A stretch of DNA of 64,000 nt from an uncultured Gammaproteobacteria bacterium (GCA_964399675.1 CAYNRK010000001.1:137221-201220); one strand, 5' to 3'. Numbered from the stretch's first letter, positions 6,227 to 60,387 are shown. A program made the numbers and translations. The notes: generated from the letters alone by a model not told the origin.

Positions 6227-6250
6227 ACCCAGGCTAAAGCCTGGGGCTAC
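6227..6250 (+). repeat. GPSL element copy (acccaggctaaagcctggggctac), intergenic.
   Basis: Matches the 25-mer cgcccaggctaaagcctggggctac found inside truB and rpsE with a single base difference. Confidence 0.75.
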
Positions 6251-6266
6251 TGCAACAGGAGATCAA

Positions 6267-7439
6267 ATGTCAGCTAGGAGAATCTACTACACTTTCTCAG
6301 CACTGATGTGTTTGGGAATGGGAGCGACTGTAACGGTTTACGCACCGTTCCTGCTTTCGATTGGCCTGACACTTGGAGAGGTGGCTTTGGTCAACTCAGT
6401 CTTCTGGGCAGTCATGATCTTGGCCGAGCTACCAACCGGAATGCTCGCTGACGGAAGATCCCGTGCGTGGTCACTCAAGGTTGGTGTTGTGCTGCAGTCG
6501 ATCGGGGCTGTTGTGTATCTAAGTGCTGTTGGTTTTTGGACAGCTGCTCTTGCAGAAGCAATTGTTGCTGTTGGCATGGCGTTTCTTTCAGGGGCGCAAT
6601 CCGCCTGGATCGCAGACGCGCTTACAAGGGAAGGCAAGTTCGATGACCTAAGGCATGTGTACGCAACCGAGCTCTTGATTCGCACGCCAATGTTTCTGGT
6701 GGGCGGAGCTATTGGAGCGCTTTTGGCACTAGTGTCGTATCGTCTGATCTGGGTGCCCCTGATTGTCATGGGAATTGTTACCGCACTTACGGCACACAGA
6801 TTCATGAACGGCCAAGGTGAACCGCTTGAACAAGTAACGGAAAAGGAAGCCTTGCTTTTGAGTCTCAGACATCTTCGCTCAAGCCGTGCGCTAAAGTGGG
6901 TGATCGCAACAATGATTGTGTTTGGATGTGTTGTATCCTTTAACCACTTTTGGGCGCCGTTTTTTGAGCCAAAGGTTGGTACACTCGGACTCTCATGGGT
7001 TTGGGCAATCATCTACCTTTCATTCATCCCATCTGGGTGGATGGTAAGAAAACTCGGAATCGGTGCCGGACAAGAAGGGAAGTACATTGTACTCTCGATT
7101 CTTATGAGTGGTCTTGGGCTTATGCTGATCGGTGTGACCGACGTGCTTGTTGGATCGCTTGTGATAGCCATGTTCCATGAGTTTGGTAGAGGCATGTTCC
7201 AACCGCTCACAGATTCGTTTGTGCAGCATCGGGTCAAGAGTGCGTATCGCGCAACGTTTGGATCACTTCAATCGTTTCTTGGAAAGATCGGCTTTGCTGT
7301 GGTGCCATTTGTAGTATGGCTCCTCATTCTTGGAAAGCCTGACACGCCCGAGACCATTACAAAAGTCTGGGTAGTGTGTGGTGCGATCATGGTGGTTGGC
7401 TCTCTTGCGCTATTCGTGCTTCGGCCGAAAAAGAACTGA
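6267..7439 (+). CDS. MFS-type transporter (about 12 TM helices). High GC (about 55%).
   Basis: Hydrophobic helices throughout. LAELPTGMLADGRSR-like loop 2-3 motif typical of MFS. Confidence 0.6.
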   Translation: MSARRIYYTFSALMCLGMGATVTVYAPFLLSIGLTLGEVALVNSVFWAVMILAELPTGMLADGRSRAWSLKVGVVLQSIGAVVYLSAVGFWTAALAEAIVAVGMAFLSGAQSAWIADALTREGKFDDLRHVYATELLIRTPMFLVGGAIGALLALVSYRLIWVPLIVMGIVTALTAHRFMNGQGEPLEQVTEKEALLLSLRHLRSSRALKWVIATMIVFGCVVSFNHFWAPFFEPKVGTLGLSWVWAIIYLSFIPSGWMVRKLGIGAGQEGKYIVLSILMSGLGLMLIGVTDVLVGSLVIAMFHEFGRGMFQPLTDSFVQHRVKSAYRATFGSLQSFLGKIGFAVVPFVVWLLILGKPDTPETITKVWVVCGAIMVVGSLALFVLRPKKN

Positions 7440-7493
7440 ACGCATCTTCGGGTGCGTTCTTTCAAATAGAAAGGATCGCCTTTTAGAAGACGA

Positions 7494-8132
7494 TCAGGCG
7501 CTTGATCTGCTCAAGCGTAGAGAGTTGCCTTTGCAGGCAGCGATCATGCGGGCGCGAGTTCGCTTGACCCAGCGATCCGCTTTTGCTTTTGTGGGAAAAG
7601 CGGCAAGCAGTACTTCGGTAAACCGATTTCCTGTCTTTGGCTCACCATCAGGCCGGATAAGGCAGGTTCGATCTGGCGACTCGTACTTGGGGTCAGGGAA
7701 CAGGGGGCCGAAGTTGGACCAGCTGACTTGGATCAAGTCTTCTTTGAAGGTAAGGTTGCTGTAACCTTCTTCATCAGGTGTTACGCTGAATCCGAGCCTG
7801 TCTGCTGAGCGTTCGATGTGTTTACCGATGCGCTCTGTATCTACACAGACCGATGTGCCCACAGGGATGAAGCGGAACGTGTAACCGTTCATTGTGAACG
7901 AATGTTCAGCCGAAGCTGGGCCAACGTGCACAACAGGCAAATCATGCTCTTCACGCAAGCTGCCTGACGTGTAGTCGTCAATGGTCCATGTTGGAACACA
8001 CACCATGCCGACCCACGCTTTTGCGGTCTTGCGCGCAAGACGCGGTTTGGTAACGCGACGGTGATACATCGCCCTTGCCATAGCAAGGTGCACCTCAAGA
8101 CCTTCGTCACGATCCTTAGGTTTAGTAGGCAT
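7494..8132 (-). CDS. Hypothetical protein, high GC.
   Basis: ORF with an AAGGGGGTG ribosome-binding site before ATG at 8132. No family motif recognised. Confidence 0.45.
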   Translation of the reverse strand: MPTKPKDRDEGLEVHLAMARAMYHRRVTKPRLARKTAKAWVGMVCVPTWTIDDYTSGSLREEHDLPVVHVGPASAEHSFTMNGYTFRFIPVGTSVCVDTERIGKHIERSADRLGFSVTPDEEGYSNLTFKEDLIQVSWSNFGPLFPDPKYESPDRTCLIRPDGEPKTGNRFTEVLLAAFPTKAKADRWVKRTRARMIAACKGNSLRLSRSSA

Positions 8133-8207
8133 GGGACACCCCCTTATATATTTAGTATTTCATAACAAAAAAAATCGCCAATAGCATTTGACGAAATTTT
8201 CGACAAC

Positions 8208-8237
8208 AAAAAATAGACCCTATGGCCTATTTTTTTA
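8208..8237. terminator. Bidirectional terminator aaaaaatagaccctatggcctattttttt (3' of the HU gene).
   Basis: Stem tagacc/ggccta with an A-run on one side and a T-run on the other. Confidence 0.55.
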
Positions 8238-8244
8238 TCTCTAG

Positions 8245-8535: not shown

Positions 8536-8574
8536 ACTTAGTTTTAATTTGTACTTGAAGTAATGTTAGCACAA

Positions 8575-11977: not shown

Positions 11978-12054
11978 TGGTGGACCCGACCGGATTCGAA
12001 CCGGTAATTCTCGGTGCTAACGCGAACGGGGTTACCAATTACCCCCACGGGCCC
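11978..12054 (-). tRNA. tRNA-like sequence. The acceptor stem with a G3:U70 pair (Ala-like), the D-arm, the T-arm GGTTCGAATCC and a CCA end are canonical. The anticodon arm is aberrant, so this is possibly a pseudo-tRNA or an integration-site remnant.
   Basis: Minus-strand read GGGCCCGTGGGGGTAATTGGTAACCCCGTTCGCGTTAGCACCGAGAATTACCGGTTCGAATCCGGTCGGGTCCACCA. The anticodon stem TTCGC/CCGAG has a C-C mismatch, and the loop GTTAGCA has a non-purine at position 37. Confidence 0.4.
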
Positions 12055-12098: not shown

Positions 12099-12183
12099 CG
12101 TCTTTTGTTAGCACCGAGATAGACCCGTGTGGATCCCCACTCGCTTATAGAAGATTGTAGCAACAAAATCGTGTTTTGTCAAA
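12099..12183 (+). repeat. About 85-bp direct repeat, copy A, upstream of the TylF-like methyltransferase gene.
   Basis: The sequence ...cttatagaagattgtagcaacaaaatcgtgttttgtcaaac is identical to 13166-13206. The left part gttagcaccgagat is an inverted copy of tRNA-like nt 12009-12021. Confidence 0.7.
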
Positions 12184-12250
12184 CTGATTCAAGAGAATTG
12201 ATTTAGCGAGAAAAATTGAAAAACAAATTTGAGAACGATACAATAGGTTT

Positions 12251-13000
12251 ATGAAAAACTACAGATATACTGCCCTGCAAAGGGTTGGCAAAAATATTTA
12301 CCGCAAGTTTTTTCCAGTTCCAAAGTCTCCGTGGACTGCTGGACATGTAGAAGATATTTGCAAAGTTAATCTCGTGCCTCCTGAAAAGCTCGTGGAGTTT
12401 TTTAAGGGAGCCATCAAAAAACTTCGTCATTTAAAAGAAGATGACATTGGTGATTATCTTGAGTTTGGGGTATTCAATGGAAATTCTATTGGGAGCATGC
12501 ATATAGCGAAAAAAAGTATGGGTGAAACATCAATGCGCCTCTTTGGGTTTGATGCCTTTGAAGGATTGCCTGCTGGTGCAGAGAATGAAGATGATGGTGT
12601 GTGGAAGAAAGGATTTTATTCATGTTCATTTGAAGAAATGAAAGAATGTCTTCGACGAAGAGGGGTTGATCCAGAAGATATTACTTGGGTATGTGGTTGG
12701 TATGATTCAATGCTTACAAAAGAGACTGCCAAAAAGTATAAGTTGGATAATCTCGGGATTGTTTTTGTTGATTGCGACACCTACAGTTCATCAAAGTCAG
12801 CTCTTGATTTTATTGGTCCGCTCATTACCAAACCTGTGATTATTTGTTTTGATGATTGGAAGCTCAATAATCTTGATCTAAAAGGAATGGGTGAATACAA
12901 ATCTTTTAATGAATTCTTAGATTTAAATTCTCACCTAAAGGCCGAGGAGATAAAATCCTGCAATCGAAAATCAAAATCGTTTCTTGTAACTCTGAAGTGA
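12251..13000 (+). CDS. Class I SAM-dependent O-methyltransferase, TylF/MycF (macrocin-O-MT) family-like.
   Basis: LEFGVFNGNS (Gly-rich SAM loop) and VFVDCDTYSS...ICFDDW acidic motifs typical of the TylF family. Confidence 0.55.
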   Translation: MKNYRYTALQRVGKNIYRKFFPVPKSPWTAGHVEDICKVNLVPPEKLVEFFKGAIKKLRHLKEDDIGDYLEFGVFNGNSIGSMHIAKKSMGETSMRLFGFDAFEGLPAGAENEDDGVWKKGFYSCSFEEMKECLRRRGVDPEDITWVCGWYDSMLTKETAKKYKLDNLGIVFVDCDTYSSSKSALDFIGPLITKPVIICFDDWKLNNLDLKGMGEYKSFNEFLDLNSHLKAEEIKSCNRKSKSFLVTLK

Positions 13001-13121: not shown

Positions 13122-13206
13122 TTGTTGGCACCAAGATTTCGATCCGTGTGGACCCAACTTGCTTATAGAAGATTGTAGCAACAAAATCGTGTTTTGTCAA
13201 ACAGTT
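13122..13206 (+). repeat. About 85-bp direct repeat, copy B, flanking the other side of the methyltransferase gene and abutting the truB 3' end.
   Basis: About 85% identical to 12099-12183, including an identical 41-bp core. Confidence 0.7.
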
Positions 13207-13893
13207 TTAGAGCTGCGAAAGGAAGTCTTTGACTGGCAAAATTTTTAATTCAATATTTTCTTTTGTAAGTTTCTCAAGAGAGTAAGCGTTCTTTAAAAAG
13301 TAAGGGCCAATGCTGGTGCGTTTAAGTTCCTGGACATAACCACCAGTGCCAAGTTCTTTTCCAAGGTCGCGTGCAATCGCTCGGATGTAAGTTCCAGAAG
13401 AGCAATGGATTCTAACTCGCAACGGTGTTTCTGAAACCAGTTCTAAATTAAATATCGTTACCAAACGCGACTTGGCTTTAATAGGCTTTCCTTTGCGAGC
13501 AGCTTCATACATTTTTTGGCCTTTGATTTTTATGGCTGAGTAAGCCGGTGGAATTTGTTCAATCTTTCCCACAAATTGTTGTAATGCTTTTTTGATTTCT
13601 TTTTCGCCCAGGCTAAAGCCTGGGGCTACCTTTTCGAGTGTTCCGGTTCGATCGTCAGTATCAGAACTTGCACCCAACACAAACTCTGCTTCATATTTTT
13701 TATCAAGCCCAACAAGTTTTGACATCTCACGTGTTGCAGCACGTCCAATGCCAACAATAAGCAACCCTGTTGCAAACGGATCTAAAGTTCCGGCGTGCCC
13801 AACACGTTTCTCATTGGTTAAACGCCTTATGCGTGCGACCACATCATGTGAAGTCATACCATCCGGTTTGTCTGTAAGAAGAAACCCTTCCAT
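13207..13893 (-). CDS. truB: tRNA pseudouridine(55) synthase TruB, with an in-frame GPSL element (VAPGFSLGE).
   Basis: LLTDKPDGMTSHDVVARIRR...GHAGTLDPFATGLL is the catalytic Asp motif. The element is at 13605-13630. Confidence 0.9.
   Translation of the reverse strand: MEGFLLTDKPDGMTSHDVVARIRRLTNEKRVGHAGTLDPFATGLLIVGIGRAATREMSKLVGLDKKYEAEFVLGASSDTDDRTGTLEKVAPGFSLGEKEIKKALQQFVGKIEQIPPAYSAIKIKGQKMYEAARKGKPIKAKSRLVTIFNLELVSETPLRVRIHCSSGTYIRAIARDLGKELGTGGYVQELKRTSIGPYFLKNAYSLEKLTKENIELKILPVKDFLSQL
13605..13630 (+). repeat. GPSL element copy inside truB, in-frame, encoding APGFSLGE.
   Basis: cgcccaggctaaagcctggggctac is identical to the reverse complement of 60284-60308. Confidence 0.8.
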
Positions 13894-16324: not shown

Positions 16325-16456
16325 TGTCATCCCGAGCGAAGGCCCGTCAGACGGGCCGAAGCCGAGGGATCTCGAATTATTTATGCGAGATCTCTCCGCT
16401 CGCGGAGCCTGCCCTGAGCGAACGAAGTGAGTCGAATGGGCTCGGTCGAGATGACA
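16325..16456. repeat. TGTCAT-family GC-rich palindromic intergenic element (tgtcatcccgagcgaag...ggtcgagatgaca), copy 1.
   Basis: Terminal inverted repeats TGTCATCCCGAG/CTCGGTCGAGATGACA. Internal nested palindromes ggcccgtcagacgggcc and gagatctc. About 60% GC in an AT-rich context. Confidence 0.75.
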
Positions 16457-16462
16457 GTGTTT

Positions 16463-17401
16463 ATGAACACTCAAAACGTAACCATAATCGGTTCTGGTCC
16501 GGCAGGGTATACTGCTGCCATTTATTGCGCGCGAGCTGAGCTTGCGCCGCTTTTGTTTGAAGGTCGTCAGCTTGGTGGTCAGCCAGGTGGCCAACTCATG
16601 CTTACAACAGAGGTTGAAAATTTTCCTGGGTTTCCAGATGGGCTAATGGGGCCTGAGATAATGGAAAAGTTTAAAAAGCAAGCTGAGCGATTTGGAACAA
16701 AAATTATCACAGACGATATTGTTGAGGTTGATTTTTCCGCACGTCCGTTTGTACTCAAAACCAGTGATCAAGAATTCAAGTCACAGACAGTGATAATCTG
16801 CACAGGGGCTCAAGCAATGTGGCTTGGTGTGCCTGGCGAAGAAAAGTATAAAGGGAATGGTGTTTCAGCTTGTGCCACTTGTGATGGATTCTTTTTTAAA
16901 GATAAACAGGTGGTTATTGTTGGTGGTGGTGATGCAGCGATGGAAGAGGCAAATTTTCTCACCAAGTTTGCAAGTAAGGTTACTGTAATGGTCAGACGCG
17001 ATGAACTTCGAGCTTCAAAGATTATGCAAAAGCGTGCAATGGACAACGAGAAGATTGAGTTTGTTTGGAACACAGAAGTACAAGAAGTTCTGGGTGATGA
17101 GCAAAAAATGACTGGCGTGAAACTACTTAACAACAAAACAAACGAAACTTCAGAGTTTTCAGCAGACGGACTTTTTGTAGCTATTGGTCACAAGCCAAAT
17201 ACGGACATTTTTAAAGGCCAGCTTGATCTGGATAAAAAAGGATATATAACAGTTGAACCTGGAACAACCAAAACCAGCATAGAAGGAGTATTTGCAGGAG
17301 GCGATGTGATCGATTATAAATATCGCCAAGCAATAACAGCCGCTGGAACCGGATGCATGGCAGCACTGGACGCAGAACGTTGGCTGAGTTCAAGGGGATA
17401 A
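16463..17401 (+). CDS. trxB: Thioredoxin reductase.
   Basis: [17 protein letters not shown] motif, CATCDGFFF redox-active CxxC, and [17 protein letters not shown] motif. The ORF-track N-terminal extension overlaps the repeat element. Confidence 0.9.
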
Positions 17402-17411
17402 TCCGAATATT

Positions 17412-17450
17412 TCCCCCCTTTTCAAGGGGGGATTAAGGGGGGTTAGCATA
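17412..17450 (+). repeat. PPF element copy, intergenic, between trxB and the high-GC lipoprotein gene.
   Basis: ttcccccctttTcaaggggggattaaggggggttagcataa is nearly identical to 45633-45675. Confidence 0.8.
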
Positions 17451-17463
17451 ATTGCTAATTGAC

Positions 17464-20346: not shown

Positions 20347-22827
20347 ATGCCATACAATCATTTAGAAATTGAAAAAAAGTGGCAAGATAAATGGGAAGAC
20401 TCAGGTCTCTTTCATGCCAAAGATAATTCAGACAAGCAAAAGTTTTACTGTTTGATTGAATTTCCATATCCATCAGGTGTTGGACTTCATATTGGTCATT
20501 TGCGCAGCAACACAGCAATGGACATAATTGCTCGCAAACGCCGAATGGAAGGATTTAATGTTTTGTATCCAATTGGTTGGGATGCGTTTGGACTTCCAAC
20601 AGAAAACTACGCAATCAAAACTGGTCGCAAACCACAAGATGTTACAAAAGAAAATGTTGCAACTTTTAAGCAACAACTCCAGTCAATTGGTTTTTCTTTT
20701 GATTGGTCTCGAGAAATCAACACAACTGATCCGGATTATTACAAATGGACGCAGTGGATGTTTTTGGAGTTTTACAAAGCCGGCTTGGCTTACAAAGACA
20801 AGGTACGAATTAATTGGTGTTTGTCTTGCAAGATTGGTTTGGCTAATGAGGAAGTGGTTGAAGGTAAGTGTGAGCGTTGTGGAGGGGAGATTGAAAAGCG
20901 CGACAAAGAGCAATGGATGATTGCAATTACAAAGTACGCTGATCGTTTGCTCGAAGATTTGGAAACCGTTGACTACTTGGACAAGATTAAAACTCAGCAA
21001 GTAAATTGGATTGGAAAAAGTGAGGGGGCTGTTGTGAAATTTGAAGTTCTCCCCCCTTTTCAAGGGGGGACAAAAGGGGGGTTATCAGTTGGCAAAGAGC
21101 TCGAAGTTTTCACAACTCGCCCCGATACTTTGTTCGGAGCAACCTACATGGTTCTCGCACCTGAGCACCCTTTAGTGGATCAGATTACAACCGATGAGCA
21201 ACGCGTAGCTGTTGAACAATACGTAAAAGAAGCAAAAGCGCAGACAGACATTGATCGACAAAATATTGAAAAAGAAAAGACGGGGATATTTACTGGTGCT
21301 TATGCAATTAATCCAGTTAACGAGGAGGAGATTCCAATTTGGGTAGCTGACTATGTGATGATGGGTTATGGAACAGGAGCCATCATGGCAGTTCCAGCTC
21401 ATGATGAAAGAGACTCTGAGTTTGCGAAGAAGTTCGGTCAAAAAGTTATAAAGGTTATTGCAGGCGAAACGATAGGAAAAGAAGTTTATACAGGAGACGG
21501 TAAACTTATCAATTCAAGTTTCCTTAACGGTTTATTGGTTTCGGAAGCTAAAGAAGCGATAATTGAATGGCTTGAGGAAAATGGAAAAGGAAAGCGTTCA
21601 ACAAGTTACAAACTCCGTGATTGGGTTTTTTCTCGTCAAAGATATTGGGGAGAACCTATACCTCTTGTTTTTTGTGAACAATGTGCAAAACAAGAGGTAA
21701 ATTCCAAATCACAAATCACAAATTCCAGAAATGCAGGATGGGTTCCAGTTGAGGATTTGCCAGTTGAGCTTCCTGAAGTTGAAAAGTATGAACCAACTGA
21801 TACAGGCGAATCACCACTTGCTGCAATTGAAGATTGGGTGAACACAACTTGTCCAAAATGTAAGGGTCCTGCAAAACGAGAAACAGACACAATGCCAAAT
21901 TGGGCTGGATCAAGCTGGTACTTTTTGGCTTACATTATGAAAGGCATTAGCGAGAATTACCAATTTTCAATAACCAAATACCAATCTCAATTGAAAAAAT
22001 GGATGCCGGTTGATTGGTACAACGGTGGAATGGAACACACGGTTCTTCATCTTTTATATTCTCGATTTTGGAATAAGTTTTTGTTTGACCAAGGTCATGT
22101 GCCAACCAGTGAACCTTATGCAAAACGCACAAGCCATGGATTAATTTTGGCAGAGGATGGATCAAAGATGTCAAAGTCAAAGGGCAATGTTGTAAATCCA
22201 GATGAGTTGGTAACTGAGTACGGCGCTGATGCTGTGCGACTCTATCAAATGTTCATGGGGCCATTTTCAGAGCCAGTGCCATGGAGTATGAACGGCTTGA
22301 TTGGAATGCGACGATTTTTGGAAAAAGCCACAAACCTTTCTGGTCTCGTTAAAGACACTGAATCCAAAGACGTTACAAAGTCTCTTCATCAAACAATTAG
22401 AAAAGTTACAAACGATATTGAAAAGATGCGGTTCAACACAGCTGTTTCGCAGATGATGATTTTTGTGAATCTTGTAAAAGAGCAGGGGAGTATTACAAAA
22501 GAAAGTCTTGTAACATTTTTGACAATCCTGTGTCCATTTGCGCCCCATCTTACAAACGAGCTTTATGAATCTTTGGGTGGAAAAGAATTTTTGGAAACAT
22601 TAAGTTGGCCAGAGTTTGACGAAAAGCTTGCAAAGGAAGAGTTGGTTGAAGTTGCTGTGCAGATAAATGGAAAAGTTCGAAGTTCAATTATGATCGCGCC
22701 AGAGGCTGATGAAGAAGCTGCAAAAGAATTAGCACTTGCAGACGAAAATGTTATTAAGCATCTGGACGGAAAAGAAATCAAAAAAGTAATTTACGTTCAG
22801 GGGAGAATTTTAAACCTTGTTGTCTAG
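20347..22827 (+). CDS. leuS: Leucyl-tRNA synthetase. It carries an in-frame 13-aa PPF-element insertion (LPPFQGGTKGGLS) at the entry to the CP1 editing domain.
   Basis: HIGH (PYPSGVGLHIGH), KMSKS, and editing domain TTRPDTLFGATYMVLAPEHP. Confidence 0.95.
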   Translation: MPYNHLEIEKKWQDKWEDSGLFHAKDNSDKQKFYCLIEFPYPSGVGLHIGHLRSNTAMDIIARKRRMEGFNVLYPIGWDAFGLPTENYAIKTGRKPQDVTKENVATFKQQLQSIGFSFDWSREINTTDPDYYKWTQWMFLEFYKAGLAYKDKVRINWCLSCKIGLANEEVVEGKCERCGGEIEKRDKEQWMIAITKYADRLLEDLETVDYLDKIKTQQVNWIGKSEGAVVKFEVLPPFQGGTKGGLSVGKELEVFTTRPDTLFGATYMVLAPEHPLVDQITTDEQRVAVEQYVKEAKAQTDIDRQNIEKEKTGIFTGAYAINPVNEEEIPIWVADYVMMGYGTGAIMAVPAHDERDSEFAKKFGQKVIKVIAGETIGKEVYTGDGKLINSSFLNGLLVSEAKEAIIEWLEENGKGKRSTSYKLRDWVFSRQRYWGEPIPLVFCEQCAKQEVNSKSQITNSRNAGWVPVEDLPVELPEVEKYEPTDTGESPLAAIEDWVNTTCPKCKGPAKRETDTMPNWAGSSWYFLAYIMKGISENYQFSITKYQSQLKKWMPVDWYNGGMEHTVLHLLYSRFWNKFLFDQGHVPTSEPYAKRTSHGLILAEDGSKMSKSKGNVVNPDELVTEYGADAVRLYQMFMGPFSEPVPWSMNGLIGMRRFLEKATNLSGLVKDTESKDVTKSLHQTIRKVTNDIEKMRFNTAVSQMMIFVNLVKEQGSITKESLVTFLTILCPFAPHLTNELYESLGGKEFLETLSWPEFDEKLAKEELVEVAVQINGKVRSSIMIAPEADEEAAKELALADENVIKHLDGKEIKKVIYVQGRILNLVV
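21051..21086 (+). repeat. PPF element copy inside leuS (in-frame).
   Basis: ccccccttttcaaggggggacaaaaggggggtta. Confidence 0.85.
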
Positions 22828-22830: not shown

Positions 22831-22907
22831 TGTCATCTCGACTAAGGCCAAAGGCCGCACGGAGAGATCTCGTATATTCGAGGTCTCTCGGTAAGCTCGA
22901 GATGACA
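22831..22907. repeat. TGTCAT-family element, copy 2 (tgtcatctcgactaaggcc...ctcgagatgaca).
   Basis: Terminal inverted repeats. It sits between the leuS stop and the NUDIX gene start, and its right inverted repeat supplies a candidate ATG. Confidence 0.7.
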
Positions 22908-23477
22908 AAATATATGATTCCAGAGAATGCAAAAAAAGTTTTTGAGGGCGTGATATTTGATGTTTATCAATGGGAGCAAGAAATGTATGACGGAAGCTTT
23001 TCAACGTTTGAGATGCTAAAGCGACCTGGTACGGTTGAGATATTAGTTGTGACTGATAAAGGAAAAATCATGATTCAACATCAGCGGCAACCCGACAAAG
23101 ATGAGTCATTTTTGTGTCCAGTCGGTGGACGTGTAGATCCTGGAGAAGATCCTCTTACAGCGGCAAAAAGAGAAATGTTAGAAGAAACAGGATATGAAGC
23201 TGATGAATGGGAGCTATTGCATGAAGTAAATCCAATGAGTAAGATTGATTGGAAGATGTCAGTATTTATTGCTCGTAATATCAAGCAGGTGAGCGAGCAG
23301 CACTTGGACGCTGGCGAGAAGATTGATTTATTGGAAGTTGATTTTGATGAGTTTATTCAACTTGTTGATCAAGCTAAAATACGACGCATTGAACAGGATT
23401 TGCGAACCATGTGCGTTCGCGCTGTTTACGACAAAGATAAGTATCAAGAATTAAAGCAAAAAATATTTGGGGGCTAG
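22902..23477 (+). CDS. NUDIX hydrolase.
   Basis: Nudix box GGRVDPGEDPLTAAKREMLEETG. The start is ambiguous (22902 within the repeat, or 22914). Confidence 0.75.
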   Translation: MTKYMIPENAKKVFEGVIFDVYQWEQEMYDGSFSTFEMLKRPGTVEILVVTDKGKIMIQHQRQPDKDESFLCPVGGRVDPGEDPLTAAKREMLEETGYEADEWELLHEVNPMSKIDWKMSVFIARNIKQVSEQHLDAGEKIDLLEVDFDEFIQLVDQAKIRRIEQDLRTMCVRAVYDKDKYQELKQKIFGG

Positions 23478-23519
23478 CAAAGCCCTCATTTAATTAAAAT
23501 GATATTCAAAACTAATTTG

Positions 23520-23605
23520 TGTCATTGCGAGGGAGCAAAGCGACCGAAGCAATCCTCGTATACGAAGATTGCCACGTCGGCCTGTGGGCCTCCTCGCAAT
23601 GACGC
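23520..23605. repeat. TGTCAT-family element variant (tgtcattgcgaggg...cctcgcaatgacgc), copy 3.
   Basis: Terminal inverted repeats TGTCATTGCGAGG/CCTCGCAATGAC. Shares cgaagcaatcctcgt with 62941. Confidence 0.7.
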
Positions 23606-23614
23606 AAGAGTTGT

Positions 23615-39476: not shown

Positions 39477-39551
39477 TGTCATCTCGACTAAGCGAGCTTT
39501 GCGAGCGCACGGAGAGATCTCTCGGCTCGCTGGTGCTCGCTCGAGATGACA
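39477..39551. repeat. TGTCAT-family element, copy 4 (tgtcatctcgactaagcg...ctcgagatgaca).
   Basis: Terminal inverted repeats. Internal ggagagatctctc palindrome. Confidence 0.7.
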
Positions 39552-39567
39552 CGTATAATTTATAATT

Positions 39568-40256: not shown

Positions 40257-40329
40257 TGTCATCTCGAGCTTGTCGAGAGATCTCGAAAACGCGAGATCCC
40301 TCGGCTCCCGTTGGTTGCTCGGGATGACA
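40257..40329. repeat. TGTCAT-family element, copy 5 (tgtcatctcgagcttg...ctcgggatgaca).
   Basis: Terminal inverted repeats. Confidence 0.7.
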
Positions 40330-40858: not shown

Positions 40859-40993
40859 TGTCATCCCGAGCGAAGCCGAGGGATCTCGCATATTCGAGAT
40901 TTCTCCACTCGCGGAGCCTGTCCTGAGCGAACGAGGTGAGTCGAATGGGCTCGGTCGAAATGACATTAGTAAACAGGCTCGGTCGAGATGACA
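40859..40993. repeat. TGTCAT-family element, copy 6, with a duplicated right terminus (..gtcgaaatgaca...ggtcgagatgaca).
   Basis: About 90% identical to 16325-16456 over about 110 bp. Confidence 0.75.
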
Positions 40994-44303: not shown

Positions 44304-45341
44304 ATGACTGTTTCAAAAAAGGTATTAGCTCAATATGAGATTGGAAAAGTGAAGTCAGTAAAGCCAGTTGAATCTGGTTTGGTTCATAATACGTTTGCAA
44401 TCAAAACATCTACCGGTGATTATATCATTCAAAAGCTTCATCCCATACTTTCTGATCAAGGAACAGCCAGAGATTTTTTGGCTGTGGCTGAACATCTTGA
44501 AAAGGAAGAATTTTTAGCACCCAAGTGTGTGCTTAGTAAAACAGGGAAAGTTTTAGCTCGTGAAGGAAAAGAGGTTTGGAGAATGCAAACAAAATTGTCA
44601 GGCAACACATACGACGTTATAAAGGATCTTTCAATGCTCAGAGAAGCTGGAAAAATTTATGCGCAGTTTCACAAGACAATGGACCACATGGATTATAAGT
44701 TTAAATCAAAATTGGTTTTGCACGAGACAGAGAAGATTTATAAGAAGTTTTTAAAAATTCTCCCCCTTTTCAAGGGGGAGTTAGAGGGGGTTAGTAATGA
44801 GGTTGAGTTTATAAAAAAAGAATTTCCAAAATATTTTTTGCCAAAAAGTTTGCCGCTTAGAGTAATTCATGGAGATCCAAAAGTATCGAATATTTTGTTT
44901 AAGAAGGTCCCCCCCCTTTTCAAGGGGGGGTTAGGGGGGGTTACCGCTGCTGCAATTATTGATTTGGATACTTGTAGTCGCAGTTCGATTCTGGTTGAGC
45001 TTGGCGATGCGTTTAGATCCTGGTGTGGTAATGAAGAAGATGATCCAAAGAACAGGTTTTGTCTTCGCAAGTTTCGTTCAGCTTGGTCTGGGTATAAAAA
45101 AGGCTCTGATGGGTTTTTAACAGCCAGAGAAAAAAGTTTGATTCCAAAGTGTATTGGTACAATCACACTTGAACTAGCTTGTAGATTTTTAACAGATTAT
45201 TTTGAAGATAGTTATTTTGGTTGGGACTCAAAGCGTTACAAATCCAGAAAAGAACATAACTTGGCGCGATGCCGCGGACAGATAAAAGAGTTTCAAGATT
45301 ATAAAAAAAAGCTTTCGAAAATAAGAAGAGTGGTCAATTGA
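44304..45341 (+). CDS. APH/choline-kinase-like phosphotransferase (protein-kinase-like fold), with two in-frame PPF-element insertions.
   Basis: Catalytic HGDPKVSNILF (HGDxxxxN) and IIDLDTC (DxD). Insertions LPLFKGELEGVS at 44757-44792 and PPLFKGGLGGVT at 44903-44945. Confidence 0.6.
   Translation: MTVSKKVLAQYEIGKVKSVKPVESGLVHNTFAIKTSTGDYIIQKLHPILSDQGTARDFLAVAEHLEKEEFLAPKCVLSKTGKVLAREGKEVWRMQTKLSGNTYDVIKDLSMLREAGKIYAQFHKTMDHMDYKFKSKLVLHETEKIYKKFLKILPLFKGELEGVSNEVEFIKKEFPKYFLPKSLPLRVIHGDPKVSNILFKKVPPLFKGGLGGVTAAAIIDLDTCSRSSILVELGDAFRSWCGNEEDDPKNRFCLRKFRSAWSGYKKGSDGFLTAREKSLIPKCIGTITLELACRFLTDYFEDSYFGWDSKRYKSRKEHNLARCRGQIKEFQDYKKKLSKIRRVVN
44757..44792 (+). repeat. PPF element copy (in-frame, phosphotransferase gene), first.
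   Basis: ctcccccttttcaagggggagttagagggggttagt. Confidence 0.8.
44903..44945 (+). repeat. PPF element copy (in-frame, phosphotransferase gene), second.
   Basis: gtcccccccctttTcaagggggggttagggggggttacc. Confidence 0.8.
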
Positions 45342-45374: not shown

Positions 45375-45634
45375 GTGTTAGCAAAAACAAAACAACTCCC
45401 GATTGAGAGTCGTTTCTTGTCCACCGAAGCCTCTTGGCGAAGGTGGATACATCTGAATGTTGAGATTTCGTTTCAGGCTTGCAGTGTTACTTTATCCTGT
45501 TCATCAACCTCTTTCCTGTGCAGCTATAGTTCAGATGTCTTCTGTTTGGACTAATCCAGACAGGTATCACGTGATTGCACAAGAGGGAATACTACCATAT
45601 ATAGGCGATTTTGTCAACCCCAAAGAGTCATTTC

Positions 45635-45672
45635 CCCCCTTTTCAAGGGGGGATTAAGGGAGGTTAGCATAA
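45635..45672 (+). repeat. PPF element copy, intergenic, at the left edge of the 45.7-49.4 kb high-GC island.
   Basis: tccccccttttcaaggggggattaagggaggttagcataa. Confidence 0.8.
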
Positions 45673-47057: not shown

Positions 47058-47202
47058 GATGAAAGGTCCTTTGCCCGGTCAAAAGACTTACATTTGCGCC
47101 GAAGTTTTCCCCGGACGCACTTGATTGCTTTTGCCGAACTTTAGTGATTGCCACGGGATTGTGACGAAGTTATCTCAACACAATCCATATTTTGAGTCAA
47201 TA

Positions 47203-47246
47203 AATTAAATTGAAAAGCCGTTCGTCACCAGGTGGTGTCGAACGGC
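47203..47246 (-). terminator. Terminator gccgttcgacaccacctggtgacgaacggc plus cttttcaattt (minus-strand sense), 3' of paralog 1.
   Basis: 8-bp GC stem with a nested cacc/ggtg stem. Duplicated at 48401-48444. Confidence 0.6.
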
Positions 47247-47278
47247 TCGTGAGTGGTTGTTGCCCTGAAAGGGCTTGT

Positions 47279-48217
47279 CTACGGCGTGGCCGCGGCCGGC
47301 TCGGGCTCGCTCGCGGTCGGGTCGCCGTTGGTCGGCTTGGCCTCGGCTTCGGGTTCCTCCGCGGTCTCGTCCGCTTCGGACTCCTTGATCTCGGGCGCCA
47401 GGTGCGCGTGCAGGTCCTCGATGCCGTAGGTGGGCGCGGCTGCGCTGAGCTCGGTGAACACGCTGCGCACGACCGTGTCGAAGATCTCGTCCTGCCGCCG
47501 CTCCCACAGCTCGTTGAGCCACTCCTGGAACTCGTGGAGCAGTGCATCGTAGTACGAGCCGGTTGGGTCGAAGCACGCGATCGGGATGTTGTGATCCTCG
47601 CGAGCCACCTGCTGGGCACGCTCGTGCTCGTGCTGGTATACCCCCATGTCTTTGTCGCTGGCGTTGGTCACCACCGTGAGCTGGTTTCGGTGGAGGCCGG
47701 TCAGCGCCTCTATCGCTCCCATCGGGCCGTTGTTGCCGACCGCGATCAGTTGCACGCCGTGTGCATCAAGGGCGCGGTCGTTGTTGAGACGATCGAAGAA
47801 GATCGCACGGATCAGCGGAACGAGCCGCTTGACCAGCGGTTCCTCCTTGCGCCAGCCGTACTCGAGCTCGCTGCTCAGTTCCTCGCGCAGATCCACGAGC
47901 GTGCTGCGCAGGGTCTCGGTCAGGAGCTCCCTGGTCGCGGCCGCGTGCTTCTTCCTGGGCGAGCGTACGAACACCATGCCGGCGTCCACGCTGTGATGCA
48001 GCTCGTAGAGGCCGCTACAGAGCGGACCGTCGTGATCCACGACTGCGGTTTCAGCCAACACCTGGATCCTGCCCGTGGTGGCTGAGTTGAACATGGGTGT
48101 GGTGTTGCACACCACGACCACGCCGGTGTCGGCATCAATCTCCACGCAGATCCGTACTGCCGCGGTGATCGGGTCTGCTGCCACGTCCCTCAGTGACTGT
48201 GTGCTAACGTCTGACAT
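47279..48217 (-). CDS. Hypothetical protein, paralog 1 (312 aa). Acidic Pro/Glu-rich C-terminal tail. High GC (about 63%).
   Basis: About 35% identity to 48475-49401 over the N-terminal 230 aa. The last ~75 aa are nearly identical (FDTVVRSVFTELSAAAPTYGIEDLHAHLAPEIKESEADETAEEPEAEAKPTNGDP). Confidence 0.5.
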   Translation of the reverse strand: MSDVSTQSLRDVAADPITAAVRICVEIDADTGVVVVCNTTPMFNSATTGRIQVLAETAVVDHDGPLCSGLYELHHSVDAGMVFVRSPRKKHAAATRELLTETLRSTLVDLREELSSELEYGWRKEEPLVKRLVPLIRAIFFDRLNNDRALDAHGVQLIAVGNNGPMGAIEALTGLHRNQLTVVTNASDKDMGVYQHEHERAQQVAREDHNIPIACFDPTGSYYDALLHEFQEWLNELWERRQDEIFDTVVRSVFTELSAAAPTYGIEDLHAHLAPEIKESEADETAEEPEAEAKPTNGDPTASEPEPAAATP

Positions 48218-48400
48218 CTTAGCCCCTATGTTTCAGTATTGGCGAGAGACCATCCAGGTTTGCCAGGTTCCTGGAATAGAAACGGACATAGTTGTCCGCA
48301 ACGAACAGAATATAGCAGAGATTTGGGCGGATGTCAATGGTTGAACTGAGCATATTTAACTAAAGAATTGAGAGATTTTGAGAGTAATTACTTAAATTGA

Positions 48401-48444
48401 AAAGCCGTTCGTCACCAGGGTGGTGTCGAACGGCTCGTGTGTTG
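48401..48444 (-). terminator. Duplicate of the 47203-47246 terminator, 3' of paralog 2.
   Basis: Same hairpin, with one extra G. Confidence 0.6.
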
Positions 48445-48474
48445 TCGTTGCCCTGAAAGGGCTTATAGCTCAGG

Positions 48475-49401
48475 CTAGCCCGGCGAAGCGGCGGTCTCGG
48501 CCTCGGGCTCGCTCGCGGCTGGGTCGCCGTTGGTCGGCTTGGCCTCGGCTTCGGGTTCCTCCGCGGTCTCGTCCGCTTCGGACTCCTTGATCTCGGGCGC
48601 CAGGTGCGCGTGCAGGTCCTCGATGCCGTAGGTGGGCGCGGCTGCGCTGAGCTCAGTGAACACGCTGCGCACGACCGTGTCGAACAGGGTCGGAGCGTGC
48701 TCGACCCAGAGCTCGTTCAGGTAGTTCTGGAACTCGCGGAGCAGCGCGTCGAAGTACGTACCGGTCGGGTCGAAGCAGTGCACTGCGATGTTGTTGTTCT
48801 CGACCACCTCGCTCGCACGTCGCTTCTGTGCCTCGCGTGCCTGGCTGCTTCCGCATTCGCAGCCGGGAGGGCAGCCGCCCTCGAGCATCGCCATGATGCC
48901 TTCGGGGCGACCCTGACCCACGGCCACGAGCTCGATCGCGTTCCTGTTGAACGGCCGCCCTTCCTTGATGCGGTCGAAGATCACGCGTCGCAGCTGGCCG
49001 GGCAGCCACTCGAGCAGCCGTTCTTCGCTGACCCACCAGTCGGTGAGCTCTTGGGCGAGCTCGGCGTGCAGACCGGGCAGCAGGCTGATGACCAGTCCGG
49101 TCAGCATCTCTCTGGTGCTGGCCGCGTGCGTCTTCCTGGGTCCCTGGATGAACACGATGCCACCCTCGATGCTGTACCGCATCGTGTAGTCGCCGCTGCA
49201 GAGCGGAGCCTCGTGCTGTCCGGCCTCTCGTGTGAGCTTGTCCGTGATCTTGTCCGCGGTCGACCACGCCATTGCTGGCTCGGTGGCCACAACCACGACC
49301 TCGCGTCCTTCGGCCCTGACCCTGAAGGTCAGCTGCACGCAAGCGTGGATCGGTTCGTCAGCGACCTCTCTGGGGCTGGGGAAGCTGATGTCTATCGACA
49401 T
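48475..49401 (-). CDS. Hypothetical protein, paralog 2 (308 aa).
   Basis: See paralog 1. It contains a Cys cluster GGCPPGCECGSS that is absent from paralog 1. Confidence 0.5.
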   Translation of the reverse strand: MSIDISFPSPREVADEPIHACVQLTFRVRAEGREVVVVATEPAMAWSTADKITDKLTREAGQHEAPLCSGDYTMRYSIEGGIVFIQGPRKTHAASTREMLTGLVISLLPGLHAELAQELTDWWVSEERLLEWLPGQLRRVIFDRIKEGRPFNRNAIELVAVGQGRPEGIMAMLEGGCPPGCECGSSQAREAQKRRASEVVENNNIAVHCFDPTGTYFDALLREFQNYLNELWVEHAPTLFDTVVRSVFTELSAAAPTYGIEDLHAHLAPEIKESEADETAEEPEAEAKPTNGDPAASEPEAETAASPG

Positions 49402-54932: not shown

Positions 54933-55343
54933 ATGCAAGTTAAAGCAAAAGCACGGTTTATCCGCATGTCCCCCCGAAAAGTTCGACTCGTTGTCGACCA
55001 GATTCGTGGCATGCAGGTTGCTGGTGCGCAGACTCAGCTTAAGTTCATGAACAAGGCAGCTGCTCAACCTGTGCTAAAGCTTTTAGATTCTGCTATTGCA
55101 AATGCTAAGAATAACTTTGGACTGGATGAGACAAAGCTTTTTGTAAAAGCGATTGCTGCTGATGAAGGTCCAACACTTCATAGATGGAAACCAAGAGCGT
55201 TTGGACGAGCAACACCAATTAGAAAACGTTCAACTCACATCTCGATTATTTTGGAAGAAAAAGGGACAAAGGTAGAAAAGGTAGAGAAGGTGGAAAGGAA
55301 AGAGAAGAAGGTAGAGAAAGCAAAACCAATAACTAACAAATAG
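54933..55343 (+). CDS. rplV: 50S ribosomal protein L22 with a C-terminal (KVE)n repeat tail.
   Basis: L22 core plus KGTKVEKVEKVERKEKKVEKAKP. Confidence 0.9.
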   Translation: MQVKAKARFIRMSPRKVRLVVDQIRGMQVAGAQTQLKFMNKAAAQPVLKLLDSAIANAKNNFGLDETKLFVKAIAADEGPTLHRWKPRAFGRATPIRKRSTHISIILEEKGTKVEKVEKVERKEKKVEKAKPITNK

Positions 55344-56873: not shown

Positions 56874-56874
56874 T

Positions 56875-57246: not shown

Positions 57247-57252
57247 TTGAGT

Positions 57253-57576: not shown

Positions 57577-57577
57577 T

Positions 57578-58117: not shown

Positions 58118-58118
58118 A

Positions 58119-58192
58119 AGGAACTTGGAACTGGGTTCTGGGAACTGGGAATTCAAATCCCAGCACCCAGCACCCATGTCCTAGTCCCCAAT
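58119..58192 (+). repeat. r-operon intergenic element, copy 2.
   Basis: ggaacttggaactgggttctgggaactgggaattcaaatcccagcacccagcacccatgtcctagtcccc. Confidence 0.7.
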
Positions 58193-58196
58193 ACCT

Positions 58197-58382
58197 ATGG
58201 CCACGGAAAATCAAATAGCAAAATCAAAGAAACGACCAAAGTTTTCATCACGGAAGGTGAACCGTTGTTGGAAATGTGGACGAAATCGTGGGTACATGCG
58301 TGCATTTGACATGTGTCGTATCTGCTTCCGTGAGCTTGCTAACCGTGGTGAGATTCCAGGTATTCGAAAATCAAGTTGGTAA
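58197..58382 (+). CDS. rpsN: 30S ribosomal protein S14, Zn-ribbon type (type Z).
   Basis: [20 protein letters not shown] has four Cys. 61 aa. Confidence 0.85.
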
Positions 58383-58383
58383 T

Positions 58384-58776
58384 ATGATGACAGATCCAAT
58401 TTCAGACATGCTTACACAAATTCGCAATGCGCAGGCTGTGAAAAAACCTGACATAACTTTGAATTATTCAAAGGTCAAATTTCACATTGCAAAAATTTTG
58501 GAAAAAGAAGGTTTTGTAGTGGGTGTAAAACAGGTGACAGAGGCAAAGTTTCCAAAATTACACATCGGACTTAAGTACAGTGGCAGCAAGCCGGCAATCT
58601 TGTCACTGAAGCGTATTAGTAAGCCTGGTCGACGAATTTATGCAAAGTCAACAGAACTTCCTCGTGTTTTATCTGATATGGGAATTGCCATTATCTCCAC
58701 ACCAAACGGTCTTATGACTAATAAAGAAGCCCGTGCCAGAAAGCTTGGCGGTGAGGTTATTTGCGAAATCACCTAA
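58384..58776 (+). CDS. rpsH: 30S ribosomal protein S8.
   Basis: MMTDPISDMLTQIRNA. Conserved S8. Confidence 0.9.
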   Translation: MMTDPISDMLTQIRNAQAVKKPDITLNYSKVKFHIAKILEKEGFVVGVKQVTEAKFPKLHIGLKYSGSKPAILSLKRISKPGRRIYAKSTELPRVLSDMGIAIISTPNGLMTNKEARARKLGGEVICEIT

Positions 58777-58780
58777 ACCT

Positions 58781-59338
58781 ATGTCTAGAGTAGGAAAAAA
58801 ACCAATTGAAATTCCTTCAGGCGTTGATGTGAAATTTGAGAATAATCACATAAATGTTAAAGGTCCAAAAGGAGAACTTGCACGTGATGTTCATCCGTTG
58901 GTTTCGGTTGCTATTGAAGATGTAGATGGTGCAGAACAAGTGGTCTTGACTATTGATGATCTAAATGACAAACAGAAAAAAGCTCAATGGGGGACTGCAA
59001 GAGCAAATATTGCAAACATGGTGCACGGTGTTACAGAAGAGTTTGAAAAAAAGTTGGAAGTTAATGGTGTTGGATATCGTGTGAATTTGCAAGGTCGCGA
59101 GGTTGTGTTAAATGTTGGTTTCTCTCATGAGGTTCGATTTGCACTTCCAGAAGGAGTGGACGCAGTAATTGAAGGAAATCTTATTACTCTTTCCGGAATC
59201 GATCGACAGTTGGTTGGTGAAGTTGCTGCAAACATTCGTAAAGTTAAAAAGCCAGAGCCTTATAAAGGAAAGGGAATTAAATATGTTGATGAGGTGATTC
59301 GCCGCAAGGCAGGTAAGGCTCAAAAGAGTGCAGAATAA
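58781..59338 (+). CDS. rplF: 50S ribosomal protein L6.
   Basis: [15 protein letters not shown]. Conserved L6. Confidence 0.9.
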
Positions 59339-59339
59339 T

Positions 59340-59696
59340 ATGACACGAAAAATTAAGGACAAACCAACACTAAAATCTCGCCGAGCAATTAGGACTCGTG
59401 CGCGACTTCATGGTACAAAGAAACGACCAAGACTCAGTGTTTCAAGAAGCTTGCGTGCTATCTCAGCGCAACTCATTAACGATGATAAGGGCGAGACATT
59501 AGCCGCTGTTTCTGACAAAGGGTTGGCTTCAGCACTTAAACCGGTTGAAAGGGCTAAAGAGGTTGGAAAGAAAATAGCAGAGATTGCAAAAGAAAAAGGA
59601 ATTGAATCTGTAATCTTTGACAGAGGATCGAATCGATATCACGGGCGTGTTGCAGCAGTTGCAGAGGGCGCTAGAGAAGGTGGACTCAAAATTTAA
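59340..59696 (+). CDS. rplR: 50S ribosomal protein L18.
   Basis: Conserved L18. Confidence 0.85.
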
Positions 59697-59700
59697 TGAT

Positions 59701-60387
59701 ATGACAGAACAAACTATAAAAACAGCAACCAAGAAAGGTTCAGCCACCAAGACCAAAAAGAATGAAAAAGGTAAGGGGCGTGGGCGCGGACGTGGCAAGG
59801 GCCGAGGGCGTCAAAGAGAAGTTCGAGAGTTCGAACAAAAGATTTTGGATTTATCCCGTGTTACTCGTGTGACTGCTGGTGGAAAGAGAATGTCATTCCG
59901 CTGTGCTCTTGTTATTGGAGATAAAAAAGGACGTGTTGGACTTGGTGTTGCAAAAGGAGCTGATGTGCAAATTTCAGTTGAAAAAGCTTATAAGCAAGCC
60001 AAACGAAATTTGGTAACAGTGCCACTTGTTAATGAAACAATTCCACATCTGATTTGGGTAAAGTATGGTGCAGCTCTTGTTATGCTCAAACCAGCTCCAG
60101 AAGGAACCGGGCTTAAATCTGGTGGTGCAATGCGTATGGTGCTTGAGTTTGCTGGTGTTCCAAATGCTGTGACCAAGATTGTTAATTCAAGTAATAAGAT
60201 TAATATCGCTCGGGCAACATTAGAGGCGATTAAGCAGTTGAGGAAGGTGGAAAAGGTGGAGAAGGTAGAAAAGGGAGAAAAGGTAGCCCCAGGCTTTAGC
60301 CTGGGCGAAGAAGTCAAAGAGGTCAAAGAAGCCCGAGAGGTGAAAGAGGTTGAAGAGGTTAAAGAAGCGAAGGAGAAAGTAGAATAA
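59701..60387 (+). CDS. rpsE: 30S ribosomal protein S5 with a basic N-terminal extension and a (KVE)n/KE-rich C-terminal tail. The tail contains an in-frame GPSL element (VAPGFSLGE).
   Basis: S5 core REFEQKILDLSRVTRVTAGGKRMSFRCALVIGDKKGRVGLGVAKG. Tail KVEKVEKVEKGEKVAPGFSLGEEVKEVKE. Confidence 0.85.
   Translation: MTEQTIKTATKKGSATKTKKNEKGKGRGRGRGKGRGRQREVREFEQKILDLSRVTRVTAGGKRMSFRCALVIGDKKGRVGLGVAKGADVQISVEKAYKQAKRNLVTVPLVNETIPHLIWVKYGAALVMLKPAPEGTGLKSGGAMRMVLEFAGVPNAVTKIVNSSNKINIARATLEAIKQLRKVEKVEKVEKGEKVAPGFSLGEEVKEVKEAREVKEVEEVKEAKEKVE
60284..60308 (-). repeat. GPSL element copy (reverse orientation) inside the rpsE 3' tail.
   Basis: The reverse complement is cgcccaggctaaagcctggggctac, identical to the truB copy. 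Confidence 0.8.

Follow-up and report, generated by a model that had tools for sequence, protein, structure and literature searches.

How do two unrelated genes of one bacterium come to carry the same 25 nucleotides in the same reading frame? The question is raised by a 64,000-nucleotide stretch of DNA (CAYNRK010000001.1:137221-201220; the window, below), in which the sequence CGCCCAGGCTAAAGCCTGGGGCTAC lies both inside truB and inside the C-terminal tail of rpsE, the gene of ribosomal protein S5. The best TruB and S5 matches are to Candidatus Uhrbacteria (Patescibacteria) from groundwater metagenomes, and the host of the element is a Candidatus Uhrbacteria genome. The comparisons described here establish the 25-mer as a hairpin-constrained, multi-copy element of the GTAG-tagged repetitive extragenic palindrome (REP) class, which is defined at the level of DNA and which, in this genome, has been copied into two unrelated genes on at least one occasion. 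Its history is probably that of a REP that was copied by a REP-associated tyrosine transposase (RAYT), survived in genes at tolerant sites that take up a multiple of three nucleotides, and was reshuffled by recombination. An earlier note on this DNA, which had drawn attention to the repeat, missed its membership in this described class (PMC3733652, PMC6006769).

Architecture and class of the element

The 25-mer matches exactly at 13605-13629 (plus strand) and 60283-60307 (minus strand), against a mean of 0.00 matches expected by chance in 100 dinucleotide shuffles. A third copy, GACCCAGGCTAAAGCCTGGGGCTAC at 6226-6250 (plus strand), agrees at 23 of 25 positions; both mismatches are on the 5′ side and the 23-nt core is identical. 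The earlier note had described identical copies in truB and S5 and a third copy between genes: the sites are right, with some ends off by one base, and the truB and S5 copies are exact, but the intergenic one is not. The likeness of the two intragenic copies extends to 37 nt with one mismatch (13599-13635, minus strand, against 60277-60313; GAAAAG-GTAG...GGGCGAA(A/G)AAG), and outside the 25-mer these shared flanks either belong to the unit or mark a preferred target.

Read from its GTAG, the element lies on the minus strand in truB and on the plus strand in rpsE. The plus strand of the truB copy comprises: CG; a stem arm at 13607-13613; the loop TAAA at 13614-13617; the second arm at 13618-13624; G; and the tag, as CTAC, at 13626-13629. 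The rpsE copy comprises: GTAG at 60283-60286; C; stem arms at 60288-60294 and 60299-60305 on either side of the loop TTTA at 60295-60298; and CG. In the intergenic copy the tag is again on the minus strand (CTAC, 6247-6250). The 7-bp stem CCCAGGC/GCCTGGG and its 4-nt loop TTTA (8 bp if the loop is taken as 2 nt) fold as DNA with −7.6 to −9.5 kcal/mol and z-scores of −2.6 to −3.5. The copies are separated by 7 kb and 47 kb, three in the 64-kb window and none in an additional 10 kb, and are the only perfect GTAG-tagged hairpins that recur in the 64 kb; a fourth GTAG-tagged hairpin, at 48121, is unrelated and at shuffle level (mean 0.1, maximum 1). Identical sites are filled in independent assemblies (JGI 3300009374, ENA ERZ23499038 and Logan SRR8062331, as well as NCBI), so the element is not an assembly artefact, and all strain variants of the source organism keep both intragenic copies.

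The copy first met in the window (copy 1) is intergenic, as the earlier note had it. It lies in a divergent spacer between an AcrVA2-like gene (4687-5877, minus strand) and a major facilitator superfamily (MFS) transporter gene (6267-7439, plus strand). Its end is 16 nt from the MFS gene ATG at 6267, and AGGAG (6257-6261) stands immediately 3′ of it. The adjoining open reading frame (ORF) 4687-5877 is G+C-rich and encodes 396 aa; it has no Pfam match in the scan made here, and its counterpart at locus L120 carries the precomputed annotation PF26125 AcrVA2-like.

The layout of tag, stem and loop recurs elsewhere. GTAG stands one base from the stem, on exactly one side, in 3/3 window copies and in 40/40 hairpins from 30 Patescibacteria loci, a census in which 10 of the 40 were chosen without preselection by tag. 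Read from the tag, the loop in these 40 is always TTYA. Their stems are CCCAGGC (33), CCCGGGC (4) or CGCAGGC (3), with the complementary arm always matching. In 43 copies, some of them intergenic, the base before GTAG is G in 88%, and the stem is followed by T in 77% and then by G in 58%. The consensus is therefore G-GTAG-C, a 7-bp G+C-rich stem with a TTYA loop, then usually TG; the string of the REP element is GGTAGCCCCAGGCTTYAGCCTGGG.

Published RNAMotif rules describe a REP as GTAG or GTGG 0-2 nt 5′ of a hairpin with a perfect stem of 7-20 bp, at least three G/C in the first four bases and a loop of 2-5 nt (PMC6006769). Because its tag, 7-bp stem and 4-nt loop fit this definition, the element belongs with REPs so described; it also agrees with the GTAG super-family of Di Nocera et al. 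2013 (PMC3733652). Inverted dimers with GTAG outside (head-to-head, HH), the commonest dimer type in the REP literature, occur at loci L001 (19-nt spacer), L058 and L088 (5-nt spacer) and in the TruB gene of L113, where the loop of the element is split by 60 nt of further hairpins, followed by the inverted partner (z = −6.3 for the fold of the whole region). None was seen in the 64-kb window. The Patescibacteria metagenome-assembled genome JBBTRQ01 has at least 11 exact copies of the element. REPs are extragenic as a class, as a rule downstream of genes, and two of the three window copies, like many copies in Patescibacteria, are not; this does not exclude membership, since intragenic REPs are a documented minority (PMC3733652).

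Other classes of small repeat fit less well. With Rickettsia palindromic elements (RPEs) the element shares only behaviour, namely palindromic repeats in frame inside functional genes, favoured where the product tolerates them; a unit of 21-37 nt and an Uhrbacteria host rule out an RPE-1 type. The RPE-1 of Ogata et al. (2000) is said to be 100-150 bp long, confined to Rickettsia and without the layout of GTAG plus short hairpin, whereas the present element measures 21-30 nt. The shorter RPE-4 and RPE-6 are counted as REPs in the classification of PMC3733652. A miniature inverted-repeat transposable element (70-300 bp, with terminal inverted repeats and target-site duplication) is not matched by a single 18-nt hairpin whose flanks differ and are nowhere repeated. 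CRISPR repeats, which form regular arrays with unique spacers, are set aside by the 7-kb and 47-kb distances in the window and by the singletons or inverted dimers found elsewhere. An intrinsic terminator is contradicted by a sense strand without a T-run, by two intragenic copies, and by the terminator calls, which leave copy 1 unflagged and copy 2, in truB, marginal in antisense only. An Rfam gathering search of the window returned no family.

The element inside TruB and S5

The truB gene (13207-13893, minus strand; 228 aa; Pfam TruB_N, 1.3e-46) reads ...TLEKVAPGFSLGEKEI... at the element, which encodes V89-G96 (VAPGFSLG) of the protein. The rpsE ORF (59617-60387, plus strand; mechanical start at 59617) reads ...KGEKVAPGFSLGEEVKE... 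in its tail, where the element again encodes VAPGFSLG. ORF translations and Pfam bear out the in-frame VAPGFSLG(E) that the earlier note had reported at both sites. Its explanation, that a near-palindrome yields one peptide from either orientation, is wrong. Both truB (minus) and rpsE (plus) read GTAGCCCCAGGCTTTAGCCTGGGCG in sense orientation, and the peptide is shared because these opposite-strand genes hold the sequence in the same sense, not because of the palindrome. The opposite orientation of the element would encode PRLKPGAT or xQAKAWGY, both of which occur in other genomes.

The proposal that this is a dispersed hairpin repeat and not an ancestral peptide stands up to comparison with orthologs. 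The element peptide is present in 0/118 S5 homologs of 60-88% identity, self matches left aside, and no trace of the element family appears in about 113 of 120 TruB homologs. The S5 tails of these homologs, after KQLR, have 0-60 K/E/A/P-rich residues, and an 81%-identical ortholog has a tail of 10.

The S5 site retains a readable footprint. The Pfam S5 N and C domains end at ORF residue 216, and the remainder is a K/E/V-rich low-complexity tail that holds the element. In public assemblies the product has 228 aa, from a start at ~59701 as judged from the Met position in the ORF translation, or 235 aa from a start 21 nt further upstream. The tail DNA (60244-60384, plus strand) is an array of 9-nt periodicity encoding (K/E)(V/G/A)(E/K). 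Without 60287-60307 (21 nt, CCCCAGGCTTTAGCCTGGGCG) the array is perfectly periodic again, and the junction forms the unit AAGGTAGAA, which is seen at 60262-60270, two repeats upstream of the element; deletion of 30 nt leaves the array equally periodic. The net insertion of 21 or 30 nt is a multiple of three, and the frame is therefore kept. The sequence GAAAAGGTAG has three sites in the window, two of them filled, whereas 1/177 other GTAG sites is filled. This bias reflects either a longer unit in this genome or a preferred target. The unfilled GAAAAGGTAG, at 55275 in the tail of ribosomal protein L22, is the only further occurrence of the flank common to both intragenic copies. The L22 ORF (54933-55343) was identified as Ribosomal_L22 through the co-linear locus L118, and its C-terminal tail (55257-55291) shares the K-V-E repeat DNA GAAAAGGTAGARAAGGT with the S5 tail (60232-60284).

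In TruB, the architecture of the site is that of a variable loop. An AlphaFold2 model (pLDDT 92.5) shows the element peptide as the coil that links strand 85-87 to helix 96-104. This loop is hypervariable in Uhrbacteria: after DTDDRTGxIxx it has 14-23 residues in most orthologs and up to ~60 in a few with inserts, many of which are made of other hairpin-derived peptides. Peptides of the element family appear in ~7/120 TruB homologs, at several positions; the closest homologs do not have them. Insertion into coding sequence, as first suggested, is borne out by a net gain in S5, while truB shows no simple addition, its loop of 18 residues lying within the ortholog range of 14-23.

Two TruB proteins, P0008 and P0018, are 63-64% identical to that of the window; at exactly the same codon their genes have the CGCAGGC variant, in which a stem pair has changed from C:G to G:C in a compensatory way. 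They are not its nearest relatives: they rank 34 and 61 of 119, and their common ancestor in a neighbour-joining tree spans 100 of 120 sequences, in a tree that is weak because the protein is short. The truB gene of P0104 is 93% identical to that of P0008 and has no element. It was considered as a clean empty site and rejected, the difference being an 80-nt divergent patch between identical flanks and not an indel. Because the patch lies between identical flanks, filled and unfilled loop alleles appear to be shuffled by recombination. At the place of the REP, the P0104 loop (locus L116) has AAAGCCGCTTTAGTGGCG, a weak hairpin with the same TTTAG centre, which might be a decayed copy and not an empty site.

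Beside truB, 55-nt direct repeats at 12135-12189 and 13153-13207 (93% identical) stand on either side of a TylF-like methyltransferase gene (12251-13000). Both repeats are located between tRNA-Ala (11978-12054) and truB, and the region looks like an inserted cassette with duplicated ends beside a tRNA gene.

Occurrence elsewhere and mode of copying

The exact 23-mer CCCAGGCTNNAGCCTGGGGCTAC is found at more than 111 loci in at least eight phyla, with one genome scanned per species. By record title, the matches listed include ~28 loci from Patescibacteria (some mislabelled), ~45 from Planctomycetota and ~20 from Cyanobacteria; also among the matches listed are 6 from Chloroflexota, 5 from Acidobacteriota and a few from Bacteroidota, Deltaproteobacteria and Actinobacteria. 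Isolate genomes with the 23-mer include Microseira wollei NIES-4236, Calothrix PCC 7103 and Dulcicalothrix PCC 7102. Longer, lineage-specific repeats contain the 23-mer as one of their modules in cyanobacteria and planctomycetes. Phages are no obvious vector, since 2.9 million viral contigs gave one match.

Other Patescibacteria translate this DNA as VAPGFSLG, GSPRLQPG, PRLKPGAT or xQAKAWGY, and have copies of it in spacers as well. Because four reading frames and spacers are all used, conservation lies in the DNA and not in the peptide. Of the six frames, two are always closed by stops (xxG-TAG, and an antisense frame through the loop). The GSPRLQPG frame is open only with a TTCA loop; a TTTA loop gives ...SPRL-stop, which ends atpF in L088. 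A stop-free stretch of at least 200 codons surrounds 25/38 Patescibacteria copies, an upper bound that takes the longest open frame on either strand and includes spurious long frames in loci of 50-57% G+C. At least 2 of these 25 are demonstrably non-coding, in the L088 dimer (2739-2790) between atpH and atpA. Orientation within the long stretches is even, 13 sense and 12 antisense.

All eight host genes that were checked by Pfam are real. They encode: SMC, with an orthologous copy in two genomes; SecA, where two genomes have the copy in the linker that leads up to the SEC-C motif; UvrD, where the copy splits UvrD_C; RadA, where four genomes have it at one and the same position, in the linker that follows the zinc ribbon; LytR_cpsA_psr; a TraG-like ATPase, with the copy in the tail; and a Wzy_C protein with three copies. 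The tendency to seed hairpins in frame that the earlier note had proposed is accordingly lineage-wide and extends to real genes. The SMC ORF of L016 (JACQSF010000032.1, a related Uhrbacteria) has a large insertion right after the Walker A motif GPNGSGK, missing in the L024 ortholog; judged by eye, it looks like an intein with a homing-endonuclease domain.

The layout of the element points to a candidate enzyme. In a table of RAYT-flanking REPs (PMC6006769), those beside Ignavibacterium album RAYT AFH48914.1 (subclass 2.7) are GTAGGACAGGCTTTAGCCTGTC and TTCA-loop variants, and their inner 14 nt, CAGGCTTTAGCCTG, are common to the element. The same source lists GGTAGCCCAGGCAGC...GCTGCCTGGG beside D. 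alkenivorans RAYT ACL02651.1 and a look-alike, GTAGGCGCGCGATTTATCGCGCGC, in Aequorivita (subclass 2.4). REPs, SMAGs, REPINs and their RAYT/TnpA-REP transposases have been described (PMC3733652, PMC6006769, PMC3116915). By analogy with these systems we infer copying of RAYT type, in which GTAG and the stem would be recognised on single-stranded DNA (PMC6006769, PMC3733652).

If copying proceeds in this way, the process likely involves: recognition of the single-stranded hairpin by a RAYT-type (TnpA-REP) HUH tyrosine transposase that acts at or beside GTAG; survival, among copies in genes, of those that add a net multiple of three nucleotides to a tolerant, surface or disordered segment; and later movement of copies between alleles by homologous recombination. 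In the window, the element has been added to the variable TruB loop and to the low-complexity S5 tail, and the third copy is in a 5′ leader.

Several observations weigh against this proposal. No HuH...Y motif of a RAYT/Y1 transposase was found in the six-frame ORFs of the window, the 111 8-kb loci or the 10-kb extensions; as this search covered a small part of any genome, absence of a RAYT is not established. Pfam found no transposase among 20 window ORFs, the G+C-rich orphan ORFs included. The truB gene has no clean insertion footprint and no gain in length relative to orthologs, and the P0008/P0104 patch points to recombination, not to fresh insertion. In S5, unit boundaries of 21 and 30 nt both fit, with GTAG as target or as part of the element. 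To our knowledge, RAYT-driven transposition of a REP has not been shown in vivo in any organism. Finally, REPs are usually species-specific and extragenic, whereas here the core is identical across phyla and two of three copies are intragenic.

These points leave some room, though not much, for a REP-like hairpin copied by an agent other than a RAYT: an IS200/IS605-type TnpA acting in trans, another hairpin nuclease, or template-switching during replication, with GTAG or GAAAAGGTAG as target and not as part of the unit. The empty transposase search suits such an agent, as does the S5 array, which before insertion already held AAGGTAGAA units, so that GTAG was maybe there first. The filling of GAAAAGGTAG relative to other GTAG sites is in line with a target, and nested insertions in hairpin loops suit any enzyme that acts on single-strand hairpins. 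An analogy with IS200/IS605 (IS608) is possible: these recognise single-strand hairpins and insert 3′ of a tetranucleotide without target duplication, and the S5 site can be read as insertion 3′ of a pre-existing GTAG. The element differs from them in being a single hairpin without transposase gene or left and right ends. Against GTAG as target, the G before the tag and the T after the stem are conserved in intergenic copies too, which is in keeping with a longer unit bearing its own tag, and the S5 array is equally periodic after removal of 30 nt. RAYT-flanking REPs, moreover, show the same layout of tag, stem and loop.

A more far-reaching possibility, which we regard as rather speculative, is that the hairpin is a mobile module that is actively spreading across phyla and, in streamlined Patescibacteria genomes, needs no resident RAYT. 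It would insert 3′ of (G)GTAG as a unit of 21 nt, which by its length keeps the frame, and would strike the same permissive sites of essential genes time and again: the loop of TruB, the linkers of RadA and SecA, and the tails of ribosomal proteins. If so, the module would be a general source of new loop and linker sequence in the proteins of reduced genomes.

That the copies are instead old and immobile, spread by vertical inheritance with short-patch homologous recombination or gene conversion between alleles and copies, is improbable. The P0008 and P0104 genes, identical in their flanks, differ in the very patch that holds the element; orthologous copies span species in RadA, SecA and SMC; and the source-organism strains keep both copies. 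Yet near-identity over 37 nt between two unrelated genes means that copying must have taken place at some point, the element is missing from the closest S5 and TruB orthologs, TruB homologs filled at the same codon are not close relatives, and vertical descent cannot account for an exact core shared by at least eight phyla.

A function of its own, whether as a peptide module (VAPGFSLG) or as an RNA or DNA signal such as an antisense terminator or protein-binding site, is very hard to credit. Antisense to truB, the hairpin is followed by CTTTT and flagged as terminator-like, the S5 copy has the same antisense context, and copy 1 abuts a ribosome-binding site. The terminator call is a marginal one that depends on flanking lysine codons; the sense strand has no T-run, copy 1 went unflagged and Rfam has no match. 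With one DNA sequence used in four frames and in spacers, the peptide is not conserved. An artefact of assembly or binning (chimeric contigs or a contaminant repeat) can be dismissed for practical purposes: most matches are in metagenome-assembled genomes, but JGI, ENA, NCBI and Logan assemblies of different samples recover the same sites, reading frames are intact, and isolate genomes carry the element.

Neighbouring repeats, related systems and significance

The window holds further repeats. A second hairpin family, TCCCCCCTTTTCAAGGGGGGA + TTAAGGGGGGTTAGCA, has no GTAG tag and lies at 2017-2073, 17409-17451, 21047-21089, 44757-44799, 44907-44949 and 45630-45672. Four of its six copies are in long ORFs: the copy at 21047 in one of 839 codons, with the peptide VLPPFQGGTKGGLSV; two in a 346-codon ORF (44304-45341); and one in a 236-codon minus-strand ORF. 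This is probably the family that the earlier note had counted as its first in-frame element, and with it at least one more hairpin family of the window lies inside long ORFs.

A third family of 60-115 nt has the core GAGRGATCTCG-NNNN-CGAGATYYCTC and ends in GCTCGGGATGACA; its copies, most of them between genes, are at 16382-16468, 22862-22908, 39514-39554, 40272-40329, 40874-40965 and 63780-63906. The pair 40874-40965 and 63792-63883 is 100% complementary over 92 nt. A fourth family contains CGAAGCAATC...GATTGCTTCGTCG and TTGCGTCATTGCGAGGAGGCC hairpins (4567-4626, 23517-23608 and 62936-62975). Some of its copies end in CGTC, an ending by which the family may fall among the CGTC-tagged REPs, a super-family of Di Nocera et al.

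The G+C content of the window alternates in blocks of ~0.37-0.42 and 0.50-0.57, which suggests acquired islands. A G+C-rich gene pair region contains a tandem duplication (47199-48217 and 48386-49401), with 183 nt at 98% and 46 nt at 93% identity at ~1.2 kb spacing; its ORFs 47279-48217 and 48475-49401 (minus strand) match no Pfam family. In ORF 7-909, a Gly/Glu/Ala-rich stretch is encoded by a G+C-rich array (103-461) that repeats with periods of 6, 12 and 18 nt (GAAGGC/GAGGGC).

Among known systems, the element is most fully described by the GTAG-tagged REPs. Likenesses are: GTAG separated by one base from the 5′ side of a perfect, G+C-rich stem of 7 bp whose loop has 4 nt; dispersed copies in number, as singletons and HH dimers, with compensatory stem sub-families; occasional in-frame copies in truB, UvrD and other repair or RNA-related genes, with a stop codon in some cases supplied by the REP; and the inner 14 nt of the I. 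album RAYT-flanking REPs. Differences are: a Patescibacteria host; a core in at least eight phyla, where most families are species- or genus-specific; a high intragenic share (two of three in the window); and a cognate RAYT that was not located in the DNA searched. Cyanobacterial small dispersed repeats are reportedly (Elhai et al. 2008) insertions of 21-27 nt, sometimes nested in one another and in genes. The 23-mer is abundant in filamentous cyanobacteria, where a second hairpin follows it. We know of no enzyme for small dispersed repeats.

Earlier work describes GTAG REPs within genes, repair genes and the truB genes of several species above all, and Di Nocera et al. recall RPE-1 in R. conorii truB (PMC3733652). 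Because intragenic REPs, even in truB, are already published, the findings reveal no new kind of biology. What is new is: the host lineage; the exact core shared across phyla; the S5 case; and the recurrent site in the TruB loop. A literature search found no paper linking REPs or REPINs with Patescibacteria, the Di Nocera supplements (PMC3733652) do not list the element sequence, and a full-text search of papers with that sequence gave only unrelated eukaryotic matches.

Patescibacteria genomes are typically ~1 Mb and are thought to be streamlined. The present results extend the GTAG-REP class to these bacteria and show that their core genes truB, rpsE, secA, smc, radA and uvrD tolerate hairpins. 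Such elements yield spurious "conserved peptides" in annotation and may mislead alignment-based marker-gene phylogenies. The shared core, together with the inner sequence of RAYT-flanking REPs, offers a handle on the copying enzyme, on horizontal movement and on whether GTAG is target or cargo. In the proteins that receive them, such elements enlarge and diversify the loops and tails of otherwise conserved structures.

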